Shown here one piece after another: positions 7 to 61,248 of a stretch of 64,000 bases of DNA. Origin of the DNA: an uncultured Acidobacteriota bacterium (lineage in GTDB: Bacteria > Acidobacteriota > Terriglobia > Terriglobales > Acidobacteriaceae); NCBI GenBank assembly GCA_963711965.1, contig CAVQGF010000059.1, forward strand, positions 1,646 to 65,645, read 5' to 3'. A program made the position numbers and the translations under genes. Numbering within the stretch: position 1 is the stretch's first letter; each line of letters begins with the position of its first letter. The notes under the pieces are model-generated. The model had not been told where the DNA came from. It did not search any database and saw only the letters and a list, made by a program, of their open reading frames with translations.

Positions 7-34
7 GTCATCCCGAGCGAAGCGAGGGACCTGC
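7..34 (+). repeat. Short copy of dispersed element family A (GTCATCCCGAGCGA-AGC-GAGGGACCTGC)
   Basis: It shares both termini (GTCATCCCGAGCGA and GAGGGACCTGC) with the longer copies at 65-125, 48650-48703, 49008-49058, 51651-51700 and 60767-60813. It lacks the central variable segment. Confidence 0.6.
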
Positions 35-64: not shown

Positions 65-125
65 GTCATCCCGAGCGAGGACGAGTCCGCCGCGCGGGCG
101 AGGCCGAGTCGAGGGATCTGCATTT
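65..125 (+). repeat. Long copy of dispersed element family A
   Basis: Sequence GTCATCCCGAGCGAGGACGAGTCCGCCGCGCGGGCGAGGCCGAGTCGAGGGATCTGCATTT. It is in tandem (direct) with the short copy 30 nt upstream. The termini are near-identical to the other copies. Confidence 0.7.
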
Positions 126-3118: not shown

Positions 3119-4995
<1,877 letters not shown>

Positions 4996-4996
<1 letters not shown>

Positions 4997-5020
4997 TTAG
5001 TTCCGGTTCTCAGTTCCCAG
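4996..5020. repeat. Degenerate heptamer micro-array (family B, GTTCC-type)
   Basis: GTTAGTTCCGGTTCTCAGTTCCCAG. It is related to the GGTTCCC/GGAAACT arrays inside tgt (38864-38959) and mnmG (59541-59633, 60914-60946). Confidence 0.4.
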
Positions 5021-5028
5021 CAAAAACG

Positions 5029-5061
5029 AATGCCGCCGAAAGGGCGGCATTTTTTTGTTTT
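5029..5061. terminator. Bidirectional rho-independent terminator between rpsA (+) and the 5151-6156 operon (-)
   Basis: Hairpin AATGCCGCC-GAAAG-GGCGGCATT followed by TTTTTTGTTTT on the + strand. The A-run CAAAAACG on the 5' side supplies a U-tract for the - strand. Confidence 0.75.
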
Positions 5062-5150
5062 GAGCGCGAAGAGTTCGCCTCGTACATTCTTCGGGCGCGA
5101 AAAATCCGCGCGCACGGTTGACGTGCGGCGCCGACGGATGCATCGCAAAC

Positions 5151-28029: not shown

Positions 28030-28115
28030 CCTCTTAACCAAGCTGGGACGGGCTGGGTCTATCAATCGCAAGTAGCTGATATAATTAGCCTTTCCACCTG
28101 CCGGAGGATTTTGTC

Positions 28116-29188
28116 TTGAGATTCCGTTCCCTGTTCACACGCTCGTCTGCCTCGGCCATAACCGTATTGCTCGTGCTGTGCGTGCTTGCCGGCGTTTGGG
28201 GCTGCCGCAAGAGCGGCGAAGGCGACCAGGCACTCGCCACCGTCAACGGCAAAAAGATCCTGCGCTCTGACGTGGAGAAATACTTCAAGAACCAGACCGC
28301 CAATGCTCCTGTAGCGCCGGAGACCGAGCAGGCCGATAGCCTGCGGTTGCAGATCGTGCGCCAGCTGATCGACGACGAGATCATGATGCAGCGCGCCGCC
28401 AAGCTGAACCTGAACGCCAGCGGACGAAGAGATCGAGTCCAAGCTGAACGACTTGAAAGCGCCTTACACGAAGGAAGAATTCGATAAGCGGCTGAAGGAC
28501 AAGAACCTTACCGTCGAGGACCTGAAAAATGAATTGCGCCGCAACGAGACGGTGCAGAAGGTGTTCAACAAAGAGATCAACTCGAAGATCAACATCTCCG
28601 ACAAAGACATCTCCGATTATTACAACGCGCACAAGGCGGAGTTCAACCTGATCGAGCCGCAATATCACCTGGCGCGCATCCTGGTGACGAACCAGCCGAA
28701 CCCGAACGTCCGCAATCTGAAGAACAGCAAGGCGCAAAGCGAAGCCGGAAGCAAAGAAGAAGATCGATCAGCTGCACTCGAACCTGGAGAGCAACGAAGA
28801 CTTCGGCACGGTGGCGATGAATTATTCGGAAGATCCGGATACCGCTTCTAACGGCGGCGACATGGGCTTTTGGCCTGAGTCGGCACTAAAGCAGCCGGGC
28901 AGTCCCGGGCAGTCAATCATGAACCTGCAACCCGGCCAAATGAGCAACGTGCTGCCGGTGCTCGGTCCGGGCAAAGTGGCCACCGGATACCAGATCATCA
29001 AGTTGCTGGCCAAGGAGCAGGCCGGGCAGCGCGAGATCACCGATCCCCGCGTGCAGCAGAACATCCGTGAGCAATTGCGCCAACGCCGCGAGCAGCTGCT
29101 GAAAGCCGCATATTACGAGGCTTTGCACGATGACGCGCGCATCGAGAACTATCTTGCTGAGGACATTCTGAAGAACACCAGCAAATAA
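28116..29188 (+). CDS. SurA-like periplasmic chaperone / parvulin-type PPIase lipoprotein; two frameshifts
   Basis: GGAGG lies 8 nt upstream of TTG 28116. The lipobox is LAGVWGC. The SurA_N-like helical region reads ATVNGKKILRSDVEKYF. The parvulin core reads HLARILV...FGTVAMNYSEDPDTASNGGDMGFW...GYQIIKLL. Fragments lie in ORFs 28116-28487, 28453-28851 and 28811-29188. Confidence 0.8.
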
Positions 29189-47024: not shown

Positions 47025-48625
47025 AGATCGTTATCGCCGAGAAGACTTCGCCCGCCGCCATCGCCCTCTTTCGCGAAGAGCCGGGCTGGAATGTGATCAC
47101 CGCCGACGATATCAGGAACAATCTGGCAGAGCACCTTCGCGACGCTGATGCGCTCGTGGTCCGCTCGGCGGTTCAGGTGGACCCGGCGCTGCTCTCGCAT
47201 GCGCAGAAGTTGCGCGTGATCGGCCGCGCCGGCGTTGGCGTGGACAACATCGACATCGATGCGGCAACAAAACGCGGCATTGCGGTGATGAATACTCCCG
47301 GCGGGAATGCCGTCGCCGTAGCCGAACACACGCTCGGGCTCATGCTGACGATGGCGCGTTTTCTCTCGCGCGCCGACCAAACCACACGCGCCGGCAAGTG
47401 GGAGAAGAAATCTTTGCAAGGCACCGAGCTGCGCGGCAAGACGCTCGGCATCGTCGGGCTCGGACGCGTCGGCCTCGAAGTCGCGCGCCGCGCGAAAGCT
47501 TTTGAGATGGAGCTGGTGGCGCATGACCCCTTCGTGTCTTCATCGGTCGCACGCGATCTAGGCATCAAACTCGCATCGCTCGACGAACTCTACGCCGCCT
47601 CCGATTACATTTCGCTGCACGTTGCCCTTACGCCGCAAACTGCACGCATGATCAACGCCGATTCGCTCAAGAAAATGAAGAAGGGGGTGCGGCTGGTGAA
47701 TTGTGCGCGTGGAGAGCTGATCGAGGACGCCGCGCTCACACAGGCGCTGGCGGGAGGCGACGTCGCCTGCGCCGCTCTCGACGTTTTCAGTCAGGAACCT
47801 TTCGCTAAAGAGTGTCCACTCAGTGCGCTCACTGAAAGCGGCAAGCTCGTCCTAACGCCGCACATCGGTGGCTCGACCAACGAAGCTCAGGAAGCGGTGG
47901 GGATGCAGATCGCCTTTCAGGTGAAGGAATATCTGAAGCACGGCGTGATACAGAACGCGGTGAACGTACCCTCGGTCACGCATGATGAGTACACGGAAAT
48001 GCTTCCTTACATTTCCCTCGCCGAGCGGTTGGGTGCGTTTCTCGCACAAGCCATCGAGGGGAATCTGGAAGAGATCAGCTTGCGCTACAGCGGACGCATC
48101 GCCGAATGGAAGACAGACCTGATCCGCAATGCCGCTATCCAGGGGCTTTTCAATCAACTGCCGGCTGAGAAGGCGAACCTGGTGAACGCGGCCTCACTGG
48201 CGAAGGAGCGTGGCATCAAGGTACTGGAGGTAAAAAAGCCGGAGGCTTCGGGCGGCGGCGCCGGCAATGTGCTTTCTATTTTCGTAAAAACAAGTTCAGA
48301 AGAAAAAGTCGTGAAGGGAGCGGTGCTGCACGGCAGTAAGCCGCGCCTGCTCGCTGTCGATGACATCGACATCGAAGCGCCACTCGAAGGGCACTGCATT
48401 CTCCTGCGCAATCGCGACGTCCCCGGCGTGATCGGCCGGGTGGGCACCATCCTCGGCGAGCACCAGGTCAACATCGCCAGCTTCGCTCTGGGACGCCACG
48501 AAGATGCCGGGGCTGAGCGGCAGGCTTTGGCGGTGGTGCAGGTGGATGGAGATGTTCCGGATGCGGCCCTCGCCGCCTTGCGCAAGATCGAAGCCATCAC
48601 GCTGGCGAAACCGATGAAGCTCTAA
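47021..48625 (+). CDS. serA: D-3-phosphoglycerate dehydrogenase (long form with ASB and ACT domains)
   Basis: Intact 534-aa ORF. The NAD site is GKTLGIVGLGRVGLEVARRA. Further blocks are NCARGELIE and PHIGGSTNEAQ. The C-terminal ACT-like region reads ILLRNRDVPGVIGRVGTILGEHQVNIA. Confidence 0.93.
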   Translation: MKIVIAEKTSPAAIALFREEPGWNVITADDIRNNLAEHLRDADALVVRSAVQVDPALLSHAQKLRVIGRAGVGVDNIDIDAATKRGIAVMNTPGGNAVAVAEHTLGLMLTMARFLSRADQTTRAGKWEKKSLQGTELRGKTLGIVGLGRVGLEVARRAKAFEMELVAHDPFVSSSVARDLGIKLASLDELYAASDYISLHVALTPQTARMINADSLKKMKKGVRLVNCARGELIEDAALTQALAGGDVACAALDVFSQEPFAKECPLSALTESGKLVLTPHIGGSTNEAQEAVGMQIAFQVKEYLKHGVIQNAVNVPSVTHDEYTEMLPYISLAERLGAFLAQAIEGNLEEISLRYSGRIAEWKTDLIRNAAIQGLFNQLPAEKANLVNAASLAKERGIKVLEVKKPEASGGGAGNVLSIFVKTSSEEKVVKGAVLHGSKPRLLAVDDIDIEAPLEGHCILLRNRDVPGVIGRVGTILGEHQVNIASFALGRHEDAGAERQALAVVQVDGDVPDAALAALRKIEAITLAKPMKL

Positions 48626-48649
48626 CATCTTCAACAGCCAAGAACCTTC

Positions 48650-48703
48650 GTCATCCCGAGCGAGGACGAGCAGCGCGAGGCCGAGTCGAGGGACCTTGCG
48701 TTT
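48650..48703 (+). repeat. Family A element, left flank of the GIY-YIG gene
   Basis: GTCATCCCGAGCGAGGACGAGCAGCGCGAGGCCGAGTCGAGGGACCTTGCGTTT. Confidence 0.75.
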
Positions 48704-48711
48704 AGGAATCT

Positions 48712-49067
48712 ATGAGACGCGAGTACGGCGGCTTCGTTTACATGATGAGCAATGCTTCACGACGAAGCATCTACACCGGGACTGCTGCGGATTTGGAACA
48801 GCGCGTCTTCGAGCACAAGAACCATCAGCGAAAGGGATTCAGCGATAAATACAATTGCACTCGTCTCGTCTACTTTGAAACCTATTCCGACTTTCGCTCG
48901 GTTATCGATCGCGAGAAGCAGATCAAGCGTTGGAGACGGAAAAGAAGGTCGCTTTGATTGAATCTGTTAATCCAGGTGGAAGGATTCTAGCTGCCGATTG
49001 GGGCAAACCGCAAGGTCCCTCGACTCGCGCCAAAAAACCGGCGCTCGCTCGGGATGACGAGGATTAA
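48712..49067 (+). CDS. Small GIY-YIG nuclease-family protein; frameshift near 48940
   Basis: The protein reads GFVYMMSNASRRSIYTGTAADLEQRVFEHKN...YNCTRLVYFETYSDFRSVIDREKQIKRWRR. After the A-run at 48937-48941 the family-typical continuation KKVALIESVNPG...LAADWGKP is in the +1 frame and runs into the right-hand repeat (stop TAA 49065-49067). The ORF as assembled ends at 48957. Confidence 0.8.
49008..49058 (-). repeat. Family A element, right flank of the GIY-YIG gene (inverted)
   Basis: CCGCAAGGTCCCTCGACTCGCGCCAAAAAACCGGCGCTCGCTCGGGATGAC. Its reverse complement shares GTCATCCCGAGCGAG and GAGTCGAGGGACCTTGCG with the left copy. Confidence 0.75.
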
Positions 49068-49080
49068 AATTTAGCAGCAC

Positions 49081-50214
49081 CTAAAATTCTCCAGCCCGGT
49101 CGTCGCTGTCGCGCTTCATCTTCTTACTCTCGGCGAGGACGCCGATGGAGTGCATCAGGTTCTGCAGCGTGACGATTCCTACCAGCCGCTCGTCATCCAC
49201 CACCGGAAGAATTGTCATCCCGCGCTGGGTGAACTTGCTGAAGGCGGTCGCGAGCGATTCCTTCTTGTTGGTGGTCTCGTAGGCGCGGTCCATGATGGAC
49301 TGCACGTAAGCGTTGCCGTCTCCGCGCAGCGCGTCCATGATCTTCTGCTTGGTCACGACGCCCACCATGTCGGTGCCGCGGATAACGGGAAAATCATCCT
49401 GCAAAGTGTGGACGGCTTTCGAGAGCGCGTCTTCCAGCGTATCCGCCGGGGAGAGCGTGGCGAAATCCGTCAGCATGACCTCTTCCATGCGCATGCTCTC
49501 GAGTGTTGATTGGAATAAGACCGAGCGCTCCTCGAGTTGTGCTGCGATGAACAGCAACAGGCCTGCCAGCATCAGCCAGTTGTTCCAGACCATTCCTGCG
49601 AAGATGAAGAGGATGGCGAAGCCGTGCCCAACGGTGACCGCGCGGCGGGTCGCGGTGACGAAGTCCGTGGTGCGGGCGAACATCGAGCGCACGATACGGC
49701 CGCCATCGAGCGGATAAGCCGGCAGAAGGTTGAAGCCGGCAAGAAAGAAGTTCATCCAAACAAAAGTACGGGGAAGATTTGTGACGGAAACATACGGATG
49801 CTGCAGGACGTGCGCTTGGGGAAGTGTGTTGGCGATGACAATTGCCGAAATGCCAGCCACAATCAAGCTGGCGAGCGGACCGGCGAGTGCGATGCGAACG
49901 TCGCGGGCGAGATTAGCGTTCGCGCTGCGCTGCAGGAAGGCGGTTCCGGGGTCGGAGACGGTAAGCCCGCCAATAGGAAACAGAACGACGGCACGAACCT
50001 TCGTGCCGCTCCGGGCGGACATCCAAAGATGTCCAACCTCGTGCAGCACTACAGAAACAAACAGCAGTCCGACCATGGCGAGTCCGCGCGCGCCGCCGTT
50101 GGCGGTGGTCTGTGGATCGATGGTCCAGAGATAAAGCAGCAGGAGTATGAAGCTGAAGTGGATGCGCAGGTTGACGCCGAAGATCTGCCCCGCCGGAATG
50201 GACCAGGTGCCCAT
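49081..50214 (-). CDS. Site-2 protease-family (M50) zinc metalloprotease with tandem CBS domains
   Basis: Motifs are HEVGH and NLLPAYPLDGGR. The C-terminal CBS pair reads MLTDFATLSPADTLEDALSKAV...FPVIRGTDMVGVVT...ILPVVDDERLVGIVTLQNL. The start is ATG 50214 (MGTWSIP). Confidence 0.85.
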   Translation of the reverse strand: MGTWSIPAGQIFGVNLRIHFSFILLLLYLWTIDPQTTANGGARGLAMVGLLFVSVVLHEVGHLWMSARSGTKVRAVVLFPIGGLTVSDPGTAFLQRSANANLARDVRIALAGPLASLIVAGISAIVIANTLPQAHVLQHPYVSVTNLPRTFVWMNFFLAGFNLLPAYPLDGGRIVRSMFARTTDFVTATRRAVTVGHGFAILFIFAGMVWNNWLMLAGLLLFIAAQLEERSVLFQSTLESMRMEEVMLTDFATLSPADTLEDALSKAVHTLQDDFPVIRGTDMVGVVTKQKIMDALRGDGNAYVQSIMDRAYETTNKKESLATAFSKFTQRGMTILPVVDDERLVGIVTLQNLMHSIGVLAESKKMKRDSDDRAGEF

Positions 50215-51650: not shown

Positions 51651-51700
51651 AAATGCAGATCCCTCGACTCGCCAAACAACGGGGCTCGCTCGGGATGACC
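51651..51700 (-). repeat. Family A element, solo copy
   Basis: AAATGCAGATCCCTCGACTCGCCAAACAACGGGGCTCGCTCGGGATGACC. Confidence 0.7.
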
Positions 51701-56960: not shown

Positions 56961-57156
56961 GTTCTTGTTCCCTCCTCGGGAATGATGTCACTTTACGAGA
57001 AAAGCAGGGATGATTCTACACTGCGGCGAGCCGATGAGCGGACATTTTGAGCCAACTATTAAACGATGGTTTTCAGGAGCACCAGACGCGGGGTCCTTCG
57101 CGCTAAAAGCAGGCGCTCAGGATGACAGATGAGAGGGATTGGGAAACCGGGGATTC

Positions 57157-59034: not shown

Positions 59035-59158
59035 CTTTTGTAACACAGCGCCTAAGGCGGTGCCGCGCCTGGGTCCCTCGGCTTCGCTCGGCACGGCGGA
59101 CAGCTGAAATAGACACAGCATTTGCCTATGCTATAGCTAGGCCAATAGCGAGAGTGAA

Positions 59159-61248
59159 TTGAATTCTCCGGAACAATACGACGTGGTCGTCGTCGGCGCC
59201 GGCCATGCCGGGTGCGAGGCCGCGATGGCTTCCGCGCGCATGGGCCTGCGCACCGCGCTGTTCACGCTGAACGTGGACCTGATCGCGCAGATGTCGTGCA
59301 ATCCCGCCGTCGGCGGCATTGCCAAGGGACACCTGGTCCGCGAAGTCGACGCGCTGGGCGGCATCATGGGCGAAGTCACCGACGCGGTCGGCATACAGTT
59401 CCGCCTGCTCAATACCTCGCGCGGCCCGGCGGTGTGGTCGCCGCGGGCGCAATGCGACAAGCAGCAATACCGCCTGAAGATGCGCGAGGTGCTGGAGTCG
59501 CAGCCGAACCTGTTCATCAAGCAGGCGGAAGTGGCGGACTGATTGTCGGAGTTCGTCGGTTTCGGTTATCAGTTCTCGGCCTGTGACGAGCGCCGACGAC
59601 TGAGAACCGAGCAACCGACAATCGAGAACTGGCGCCAGACGCGCAGGCGCGCAGTCGGCATCAAGCTGCGCGACGGCCGCACTGTCGGCGCGCAGGCCGT
59701 CATCATCACCACCGGAACATTTCTCAACGGACTGATCCACTGCGGCGAGCAGACACTATCCTGCGGGGCGCTAGCGGCGAGCCGCCATCGCAGTTCTGCT
59801 GGGCGAATCGCTCAAAGCTGCTCGGGCTGCGCGGCATGCGCCTGAAGACCGGAACGCCGCCGCGTCTCGATGGACGCACCATCGACTGGTCGAAGTTCGA
59901 ATCGCAGCCCGGCGACGCCGATCCCACGCCGTTCAGCTTCCGCACGAAGAAAGTCGCGCATCACGACAAGCAGGTGCCGTGCTACATCGCTTACACCACG
60001 GCGGAGACGCACCGCATCATCGCGGAGAACGTGCATCGCTCGCCGATGTACTCGCGGGCAGATCCAATCCATCGGGCCGCGCTACTGCCCGTCAGCATCG
60101 AAGACAAGATCGTCAAGTTTCCCGACAAGCTGCAGCACCAGCTCTTCCTCGAGCCCGAGGGGCTGAACACGCACGAGATCTACGTCAACGGCATGTCGCA
60201 CCTCGATGCCCATCGACGTGCAGCTGGCGATGATCAAGTCGATTCCCGGGACTCGAGAACGCGGAGATGCTGCGCCCCGGTTACGCCATCGAGTACGACG
60301 CCATCGATCCGACTGAACTCGAGCGCACGCTCGAGGTGAAGAAGATCGCCGGGCTCTATCTCGCCGGACAGATCAACGGGACATCGGGATATGAAGAGGC
60401 CGCATGCCAGGGGCTGATGGCCGGCATCAACGCCGCACTGAAGGTGAAGGGCGAGCCGCCGCTCATCCTCGATCGCACCGAGGCGTATACCGCCATCCTG
60501 ATCGACGATCTGATCTCCAAGGGAACGAACGAGCCGTATCGCATGTTTACCTCACGCGCCGAGTTCCGTTTGCATCTGCGCATCGACAACGCCGACCGCA
60601 GGCTGACGCCGCACGGGCGACGAGTGGGATTGATCGACGATGCTGCGTGGTCGGACCATCTGGCGAAGCAGGAGCGGATGCGGGAGCTGAGGGACTATTT
60701 GGAGAAGACGCGCGCTTCGGCAGACATGGTGGAGAAGCTGTCGTCGACTTTGCAAGAGGAAAGTACAAATGCGAGATCCCTCGACTCGCAAAGAACGCTC
60801 GCTCGGGATGACCTTCAAGGAAGTGCTTCCATCCGCAGTTGGCAACACATTGGCTCAACTGCTCAAGCGTCCCGAAGTGACGATCGAGCATCTGTTCCCG
60901 ATCCTGCGCGAGTCTGGAAACTGGAAACTGGAAACCGGAAACTTCCTCGAGTACAAATCCGTCGAGACCGAGATCAAGTACGCGGGATACCTGCAGCAAC
61001 AGCAGCGCTCGATCGAGCGGCTGAAGAAGGCCGAGCAGCGCAACATTCCGGAGTGGTTCGACTACAAGAACGTGAGCGGGCTCTCGCGCGAGATGCACGA
61101 AAAGCTCACCCGCGTGCGTCCACGCACCATCGCGCAGGCCTCGCGCATTCCGGGAGTCACGCCGGCCGCGCTGTCATTGATAAACGTTTACATCGAGATC
61201 CAGGCGCGGCGGCACGCGCAAGCGCAAGCAGTCGTGGCTTCCGAGTAG
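59159..61248 (+). CDS. mnmG: tRNA uridine-5-carboxymethylaminomethyl synthesis enzyme MnmG (GidA); multiple frameshifts, one in-frame TGA and three repeat insertions
   Basis: The FAD site is [23 protein letters not shown]. Further blocks are [47 protein letters not shown]-like, [50 protein letters not shown] and the C-terminus [19 protein letters not shown]...[18 protein letters not shown]. Confidence 0.92.
59541..59633. repeat. Imperfect long hairpin built from inverted degenerate heptamer arrays, inserted in mnmG (family B)
   Basis: GATTGTCGG...TTCGTCGGTTTCGGTTATCAGTTCTCGG // CCGACGACTGAGAACCGAGCAACCGACAATC. The outer 9 nt, GATTGTCGG/CCGACAATC, are perfectly complementary. Confidence 0.6.
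60767..60813 (-). repeat. Family A element inside the mnmG coding region
   Basis: AAATGCGAGATCCCTCGACTCGCAAAGAACGCTCGCTCGGGATGACC. Confidence 0.7.
60914..60946. repeat. Heptamer array CTGGAAA x3 plus CCGGAAA inside mnmG (family B)
   Basis: CTGGAAACTGGAAACTGGAAACCGGAAACTTCC, translated in frame as [11 protein letters not shown]. Confidence 0.7.

Follow-up and report, generated by a model that had tools for sequence, protein, structure and literature searches.

A probable Ssn nuclease gene and its cognate hairpin repeats in an acidobacterial-type genome

The Ssn proteins described by Chenal et al. (Nat Commun 2025, PMC11893778) are single-domain GIY-YIG nucleases of about 94 aa (CDD cd10448, GIY-YIG_unchar_3), and ssn genes are flanked by hairpin repeats, named NTS in Neisseria (CGTCATTCCCGCGMAVGCGGGAATCYRG) and Ssn-related motif (SRM) in general. 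Here, we describe a small GIY-YIG gene that lies between two inverted copies of a dispersed repeat in an acidobacterial-type genome. The gene lies on contig CAVQGF010000059.1, in a stretch of 64 kb that was analysed as a whole and is called the window below. From sequence comparison, we consider it about 90% probable that this is an Ssn/SRM locus, in which the gene encodes an Ssn nuclease and the repeat is its cognate oriented hairpin. An earlier reading of the letters without database searches (the sequence-only reading) had named the repeat family A and supposed that its pairing with a GIY-YIG enzyme was undescribed. On this point it was mistaken, as the locus belongs to a system already published in 2025.

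In the study of Chenal et al., at least one SRM was found near 71% of Ssn homologues and SRMs on both sides in 42%; the typical layout is SRM-ssn-SRM, with further repeats dispersed in the genomes. Purified Ssn proteins of N. meningitidis, N. elongata, N. wadsworthii and Wolbachia bound the hairpin solely as single-stranded DNA (ssDNA) of the tagged strand. Cleavage, too, was specific to ssDNA: the cut fell a few nt upstream of the hairpin, and the reverse strand was left uncut. N. meningitidis SsnA did not bind RNA. Cleavage depends on the three bases that precede the palindrome, and binding most critically on the C that follows it; split-hairpin experiments demonstrated that apical inserts are tolerated in vitro in Neisseria. 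In N. meningitidis, SsnA lowers transformation by NTS-bearing DNA. The authors likened NTS-ssnA-NTS to an insertion sequence (IS) and drew an analogy with IS200/IS605 and with repetitive extragenic palindromic (REP) elements and their REP-associated tyrosine transposases (RAYTs) (PMC11893778). Earlier, Di Nocera et al. (2013) described CGTC-tagged REPs that "apparently lack a dedicated transposase". Their tag is often TGTC, their stem opens with A-T at positions 1-2 and their tail with C, and they include dRS3 and the Rickettsia palindromic elements (RPEs) RPE-4 and RPE-6 (PMC3733652).

The window gene and its relation to SsnA

As assembled, the window contains an 81-aa open reading frame (ORF) at 48712-48957 (+) (MRREYGGFVYMMSN...REKQIKRWRRKRRSL), past which the frame is broken and the coding sequence continues in another frame to 49067; reconstruction gives a product of 118 aa. 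The sole Pfam match of the ORF was GIY-YIG (PF01541, E=5.9e-14), which covers residues 7-78 of the reconstruction; the protein has no accessory domain, and its size fits the range of ~90-120 aa for Ssn. The conserved core of ~94-97 aa stops at W97 (~49002), and the final ~17 codons (from ~49012) are the right-hand hairpin in translation. The nearest PDB sequences are the UPF0213 proteins 1zg2 and 1ywl (E=3.6e-8 and 1.4e-4). Like the bacterial Slx1-like/UPF0213 (YhbQ) proteins, the window protein is a minimal stand-alone GIY-YIG domain of ~100 aa, but the relation is distant and Ssn counts as a family of its own (cd10448). We know of no cognate repeat for UPF0213.

We compared the window protein with SsnA, using as the Neisseria reference a 94-aa ORF in an N. 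gonorrhoeae chromosome record that is mislabelled in a plasmid collection (L083, 1489-1773). Tblastn with the window protein matched a single place in this record (E=3e-17), and BLASTP against the N. gonorrhoeae orthologue gave a gapless alignment of 88/94 residues at 39% identity (E=1e-24). By the published homology definition (E<1e-10, >75% of SsnA length), the window protein is thus an Ssn homologue. The N. gonorrhoeae orthologue carries Y6, Y17 and E64 and is embedded in 16 NTS repeats within 3.2 kb. Y10, Y21 and E68 of the window protein align with these residues and are invariant in a 28-sequence alignment; in N. meningitidis SsnA, mutation of Y6, Y17 and E64 abolished cleavage (PMC11893778).

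The gene is bracketed on both sides by the hairpin, at 48650-48695 (+) and 49014-49058 (-). Both copies contain the inner 18-mer GAGTCGAGGGACCTTGCG, at 48683-48700 (+) and 49009-49026 (-), with no mismatch (chance expectation 0.11), and it forms the perfect inverted repeat that the sequence-only reading had reported. The outer 15-mer GTCATCCCGAGCGAG is found at 48650 (+) and 49044-49058 (-), the shared outer ends of the two flanking copies, and also at 7 (1 mismatch), 65, 51685-51699 (-) and 60798-60812 (-). This count of 6 in the window compares with 0.40 expected, and 0/100 shuffles reached it. The inverted arms comprise 48682-48703/49006-27 (22 nt, 95%) and 48643-64/49044-65 (22 nt, 91%), and the repeat runs ~7 nt past the GTCAT ends, to 48643 on the left. 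These results uphold the earlier description of a small GIY-YIG ORF between inverted copies of a dispersed element with common outer ends.

The same bracketing was found in two metagenomic contigs (L081 and L082), which carry an orthologous serA-SRM-ssn-SRM-M50/CBS locus with ~85% DNA identity to the window. In the window, serA likewise lies upstream and the M50/CBS protease gene downstream on the opposite strand, in a chromosomal setting. In both relatives, ssn is intact at 118 aa (P0001 and P0002) and reads through the right repeat (…QGPSTRA…ALARDDED). The sequence-only reading had anticipated such a read-through for the window protein after correction of its frame, and the reconstruction, which extends to 49067, agrees with it. 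Between L081 and L082, ssn differs by 47 synonymous and 11 nonsynonymous codons (4/8/52 by codon position), and this mostly synonymous change indicates that the protein is under purifying selection. The conserved boxes of the hairpins are invariant in the two contigs, and the apical part differs.

Relative to these orthologues, 1 nt is absent from the window gene at ~48938-48939. The A-run at which the sequence-only reading had placed the frameshift lies at 48940-48943 and not at 48937-48941. A second defect is a compensating deletion/insertion pair at ~48973 and ~48986, which gives GGRIL where the orthologues have GWKDL. Other genes in the window are affected as well: mnmG (59141-61245) is split over at least four frames, with GIDA profile positions 1-119, 188-305 and 328-390 in different frames, and rpsA/S1 (3789-5118) and a gene for a SurA-like peptidyl-prolyl isomerase (28089-29185) are also broken across frames. 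These findings suggest that the window assembly carries indel errors and that its frameshifts are not to be taken as pseudogenes. Therefore, the ssn frameshift, which is probably an assembly error, is not to be read as gene decay, and a pseudogene reading of the three ssn indels was dropped.

Hairpin anatomy in the window and in homologous loci

We counted 8 SRM copies in the 64-kb window, against ~0 expected, a count that covers the window only. The positions of the gene and the repeats are given in Table 1. All copies listed by the sequence-only reading are present; the one at 57092 (-) had been missed, and the one at 60767 (-) lies within mnmG and is not intergenic. In the left flanking copy, the GTC tag (48650-48652) is followed by a stem ATCCC/GGGAC with a GAG...CGA internal loop and a variable apex (48653-48694), the 3' C (48695) and the inner tail TTGCGTTT. 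In the right copy, the tag is at 49058-49056 and the hairpin core at 49014-49058, overlapping the 3' end of the reconstructed ORF. The GTC tag is present in 8/8 window copies, preceded by C, G or T, and all copies have the 3' C. As noticed before, the copies fall into subtypes: those flanking the gene read GGGACCTTGCG, solo copies GGGATCTGCATTT or GGGATCTCGCATTT, and the copy at 7 GGGACCTGC. The first stem pair in both gene-flanking copies is A.C (GGGACC).

Table 1. The putative ssn gene and the SRM hairpin repeats in the window
Feature	Position	Strand	Evidence
Putative ssn gene, single-domain GIY-YIG nuclease, Ssn family	48712..49067	+	Pfam, SsnA BLASTP, orthologues
Left SRM hairpin repeat, tag outward	48643..48703	+	Inverted-repeat search, motif matches, orthologues
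Right SRM hairpin repeat, inverted, tag outward	49006..49065	-	Inverted-repeat search, motif matches, orthologues
Solo short SRM, minimal hairpin GTCATCCCGAGCGAAGCGAGGGACC	7..34	+	15-mer match (1 mismatch)
Solo SRM, long apical insert, subtype GGGATCTGCATTT	65..125	+	15-mer match
Solo SRM, subtype GGGATCTGCATTT	51651..51699	-	15-mer match
Solo SRM, CCT/AGG stem type, GTCATCCTGAGCGCCTGCTTTTAGCGCGAAGGACC, third subtype in window	57092..57126	-	Structure-aware pattern
SRM, subtype GGGATCTCGCATTT, inside mnmG linker between GIDA and GIDA_C domains	60767..60813	-	15-mer match

We then assessed the association of gene and repeat in relatives, which comprised 80 loci (one genome per species, encoded relatives at 43-61% identity) from Acidobacteriota, Chloroflexota, Cyanobacteria, Bacteroidota, Firmicutes, Planctomycetota, Verrucomicrobiota and other phyla. 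For each gene, the flanks of 250 nt on either side were searched for inverted repeats shared between them, and the best one was compared with control positions in the same loci. The results showed that the flanking inverted repeat was above the control 99th percentile in 65/78 testable homologous genes. Hairpins occurred at 4.2/kb within 250 nt of the gene versus 0.14/kb elsewhere in the loci (~30-fold), and a copy was found upstream in 58/83 genes and downstream in 62/83. The SRM-ssn-SRM arrangement with tags outward thus recurs in many phyla. These counts bear out the earlier proposal of a REPtron-like unit in which a GIY-YIG nuclease, instead of a RAYT, is joined to a cognate repeat.

Across the loci, the elements follow a common design: (T/C)GTC, AT-NNN, GAG(CG), a variable middle, (C)GA, N'N'N'-AT and C. 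The stem triplet NNN/N'N'N' was perfectly complementary in 265/312 elements, compared with a mean of 58.6 and a maximum of 82 in shuffled pairings. At least 8 triplet types were present (CCC 72, CCT 68, TCT 68, TCC 25, GCT 15 and others). Among 61 distinct short copies, 93.7% of cells were paired and double-sided changes numbered 52 versus 11.7 in shuffles (0/500 reached this value), while every shifted register gave at most 52% pairing. The base 3' of the palindrome was C in 262/265 elements (C or T being permitted), and the base before GTC was T in 242/264. It is because of this covariation, and not because of folding stability, that we call the element a hairpin. The 5' GTC tag precedes a stem with A-T/T-A closing pairs and the covarying 3-bp box; above these come a tandem G.A/A.G internal loop and the variable apical stem-loop, and the 3' C stays unpaired. 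The minimum free energy ssDNA fold of the copy at 7-34 was .......((((..((...))..)))). in dot-bracket notation.

These features resemble those of Ssn with NTS/SRM, as represented by SsnA of N. meningitidis: a single-domain GIY-YIG protein with the same catalytic Tyr/Tyr/Glu, an oriented, AT-closed hairpin with GTC as 5' tag and the essential C on its 3' side, a gene between inverted copies, and further copies dispersed or clustered. Unlike the fully paired GC stem of Neisseria NTS, however, the window-type stem has the conserved tandem G.A/A.G loop (GAGCG...CGA), its apex takes up variable inserts of up to ~60 nt, and the ORF in the window lineage reads through the downstream hairpin. The CGTC-tagged REPs share the CGTC/TGTC motif, A-T at stem positions 1-2, the short unpaired C-initial tail, inverted dimers, clusters and occasional copies inside genes. 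The families described have uninterrupted stems of 8-9 bp with loops of 4-5 nt and were found mainly in Alphaproteobacteria (PMC3733652), whereas here the stem is broken by G.A and the apex varies in length.

The published degenerate SRM search sequence, HGTCWYN(0-2)YYVSBRHN(0-5)WNVSBRGN(0-2)RNCYNB, gave 0 matches in the window and matched 0/265 hairpins (9/265 with one mismatch), while a Neisseria control gave 9 NTS matches. The G.A internal loop and the length of the apical inserts account for this failure. Hairpin types are distributed by protein clade, with fully paired stems in Rhizobium and Neisseria and G.A stems in Planktothrix, Spirosoma and Acidobacteriota; around a Rhizobium plasmid homologue, the flanking fully paired SRMs match the published pattern. 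Since Chenal et al. anticipate many co-evolving enzyme-hairpin pairs, we treat the G.A hairpin as variation within the Ssn family. Whether the window hairpins form a second structural class of SRM, defined by the tandem G.A/A.G loop and the variable apical arm and paired with a distinct Ssn clade, is a proposal to which we give even odds. Such a clade may span Acidobacteriota, Chloroflexota, Cyanobacteria, Bacteroidota, Firmicutes, Planctomycetota and others.

Several further arrangements were observed in the relatives. Long hairpin arrays with approximately regular spacing stand beside ssn homologues in four loci (L007 5365-6556; L030 4663-5629; L049 5440-7043; L072 4538-5396) and resemble clusters of bacterial interspersed mosaic elements and Neisseria NTS clusters. 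Duplicated ssn homologues stand in tandem, each between repeats of its own, at L025 2494-3328, L067 4429-5261 and L073 5004-5956, and one metagenome-assembled genome (L066 and L076) holds two different ssn/hairpin subtypes. On Planktothrix agardhii plasmid p1 (L084, NZ_LR882964.1 17859-20122), the ssn homologue has a type IIL MmeI restriction-modification gene on one side and DISARM drmA on the other, a defence-island setting, and is surrounded by arrays of truncated 23-nt 5' halves of the hairpin (TGTCATTCTGAGT...). Many family proteins (P0001-P0030, P0056, P0111 and P0115) end in ...QGPST..ARDD or ...RSG. These ends are the downstream hairpin GCTCGGGATGAC in two frames, so the C-terminal extensions reflect the DNA repeat and not a conserved peptide.

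A Rfam search matched no family, either in the whole window at gathering thresholds or in 48600-49100 at E<=10. A ribozyme or kink-turn (hammerhead-like) reading of the CUGA...GA boxes was dropped, as the core does not fit and Rfam lends no support. A search of full-text literature with 12-mers of the repeat matched only unrelated primers.

Inheritance, mobility and alternative explanations

Several observations weigh against assignment of the window locus to the Ssn/SRM system. Ssn activity has been demonstrated for three Neisseria homologues and one of Wolbachia only, and none of these is from the window clade. The published pattern misses the G.A hairpins, so the details of recognition may differ. 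The gene-flanking copies are of the GGGACC subtype and most solo copies of the GGGATC subtype, and no second ssn paralogue was found within the 64 kb. The ssDNA folding energy of the window copies is no better than that of shuffles (z -1.06 to +0.91). In addition, the gene is frameshifted as assembled and may therefore be inactive in the source genome.

The copy inside mnmG bears on mobility. It sits on the minus strand in the variable linker between LEKTR and AQLLKRPE, which is 178 nt long in the window. The linker is 90 nt without a hairpin in L088 (an empty site), 207 nt with an in-frame minus-strand hairpin of a different stem type in L089, and 204 nt with an in-frame plus-strand hairpin in L090. 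The comparison of filled and empty sites in relatives, which the sequence-only reading had proposed, thus gave direct evidence that hairpins move, or moved, in the window lineage. The mnmG hairpin parallels intragenic REPs and Rickettsia RPEs described before. Like Rickettsia RPEs, the hairpins may enter housekeeping genes without breaking the frame, and the mnmG linker may be a hot spot for such insertion. A diverged direct duplication of ~15 nt (EKLSSxL / xxLPSAxG) may flank the mnmG insert.

These filled and empty sites would also suit an explanation in which SRM-ssn-SRM is an active autonomous IS, with the GIY-YIG protein as transposase and the solo hairpins as derivatives resembling miniature inverted-repeat transposable elements. 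In layout the unit resembles an IS, as its terminal inverted repeats have their conserved ends outward; Chenal et al. also remarked this resemblance (PMC11893778). Some genomes hold several copies (L066 and L076) or tandem pairs (L025, L067 and L073). However, the unit occupies the same position between serA and the M50/CBS gene in three genomes ~15% apart in DNA. The ssn locus is inherited vertically, in synteny, in the window and its two relatives; the syntenic position and the mostly synonymous change show that the unit is passed on vertically, as RAYTs are, and this weighs against an actively transposing IS here. The window moreover holds a single ssn unit, and its ends have no evident target-site duplication. 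On each strand, only one of the two inverted hairpins would be cleavable, as the reverse strand is left uncut, which misfits single-strand excision. A search of viral contigs (IMG/VR) with the pattern EKQ[IL]K[RG]W, which is of limited sensitivity, found no Ssn relative, and phages do not seem to be common carriers of the family. Taken together, we regard an active IS as unlikely.

A further explanation is that the hairpins are ordinary REPs moved by a RAYT (Y1 HUH) encoded elsewhere in the genome, with the GIY-YIG gene as a bystander. The tagged imperfect palindrome, the intergenic clusters and the inverted pairs would agree with this, yet the tag is (C/T)GTC and not GTAG, and CGTC-tagged REPs are known without an associated tyrosine transposase (PMC3733652). 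The ~30-fold enrichment of hairpins within 250 nt of ssn homologues in many phyla and the tracking of hairpin type with Ssn clade speak against a bystander, and binding and cleavage were shown directly for four Ssn homologues (PMC11893778). We therefore hold this explanation to be very improbable.

Least probable of all is a free-standing GIY-YIG homing endonuclease, or hairpins that serve the gene mainly as RNA-level terminators or mRNA stabilisers: a sub-threshold NCBIfam match, the only one found, to TIGR01453 (group I intron endonuclease, 23.9 bits versus a cutoff of 56.05, residues 7-42 only) and the downstream hairpin at the transcript 3' end point that way, but unlike I-TevI-type enzymes the protein has no C-terminal DNA-binding module and its gene does not lie in an intron, intein or phage, the hairpin on each side is complete and not half of a split target, Rfam was negative even at E<=10, no T-tract follows the hairpin, N. 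meningitidis SsnA does not bind RNA (PMC11893778), and these same hairpins are also present within mnmG and at sites remote from any ssn gene.

Possible role and meaning for the Ssn family

By analogy with the four published homologues, the window Ssn would require a single-stranded tagged strand to bind the hairpin. The predicted cuts, a few nt 5' of the GTC tag, would lie at ~48644-48649 (+) and ~49059-49064 (-), and likewise at each dispersed copy; at the flanking copies, they would fall just outside the unit, on opposite strands. The most likely role would be the processing or restriction of transient repeat-bearing ssDNA, such as incoming DNA or replication or repair intermediates. In contrast to Neisseria, the host here has an acidobacterial-type soil genome, for which natural transformation is not established. 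The repeat population may, in addition, owe its origin or its upkeep to the nuclease, in a domesticated partnership resembling REP/RAYT.

As in the REP/RAYT system (REPtron), a single-copy, vertically inherited nuclease gene is flanked by inverted copies of a dispersed hairpin, and a tagged hairpin would be recognised in ssDNA. The enzyme differs, being of the GIY-YIG type and not a Y1 HUH (IS200/IS605-like) transposase, as does the tag (GTC, not GTAG). To our knowledge, strand-transfer chemistry is not known for GIY-YIG enzymes. The ssn gene behaves as a domesticated, vertically inherited partner of the repeats, as RAYTs do.

The window locus adds an acidobacterial-type example to a nuclease family known only since 2025 and leaves the published picture unchanged (PMC11893778). 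Three observations may go beyond it, namely the G.A loop with long apical inserts, the syntenic intact locus in two relatives, and the mnmG copy with an empty site. From these comparisons, a large class of cognate hairpins, spread over many phyla, appears to escape the published motif definition. In practical terms, the Ssn family attracts interest as a supply of nucleases that cut ssDNA at specific sites; if the second SRM class is real, the association of Ssn with hairpins would be nearer to universal than 71% and 42% indicate, and new ssDNA cleavage specificities would be available.

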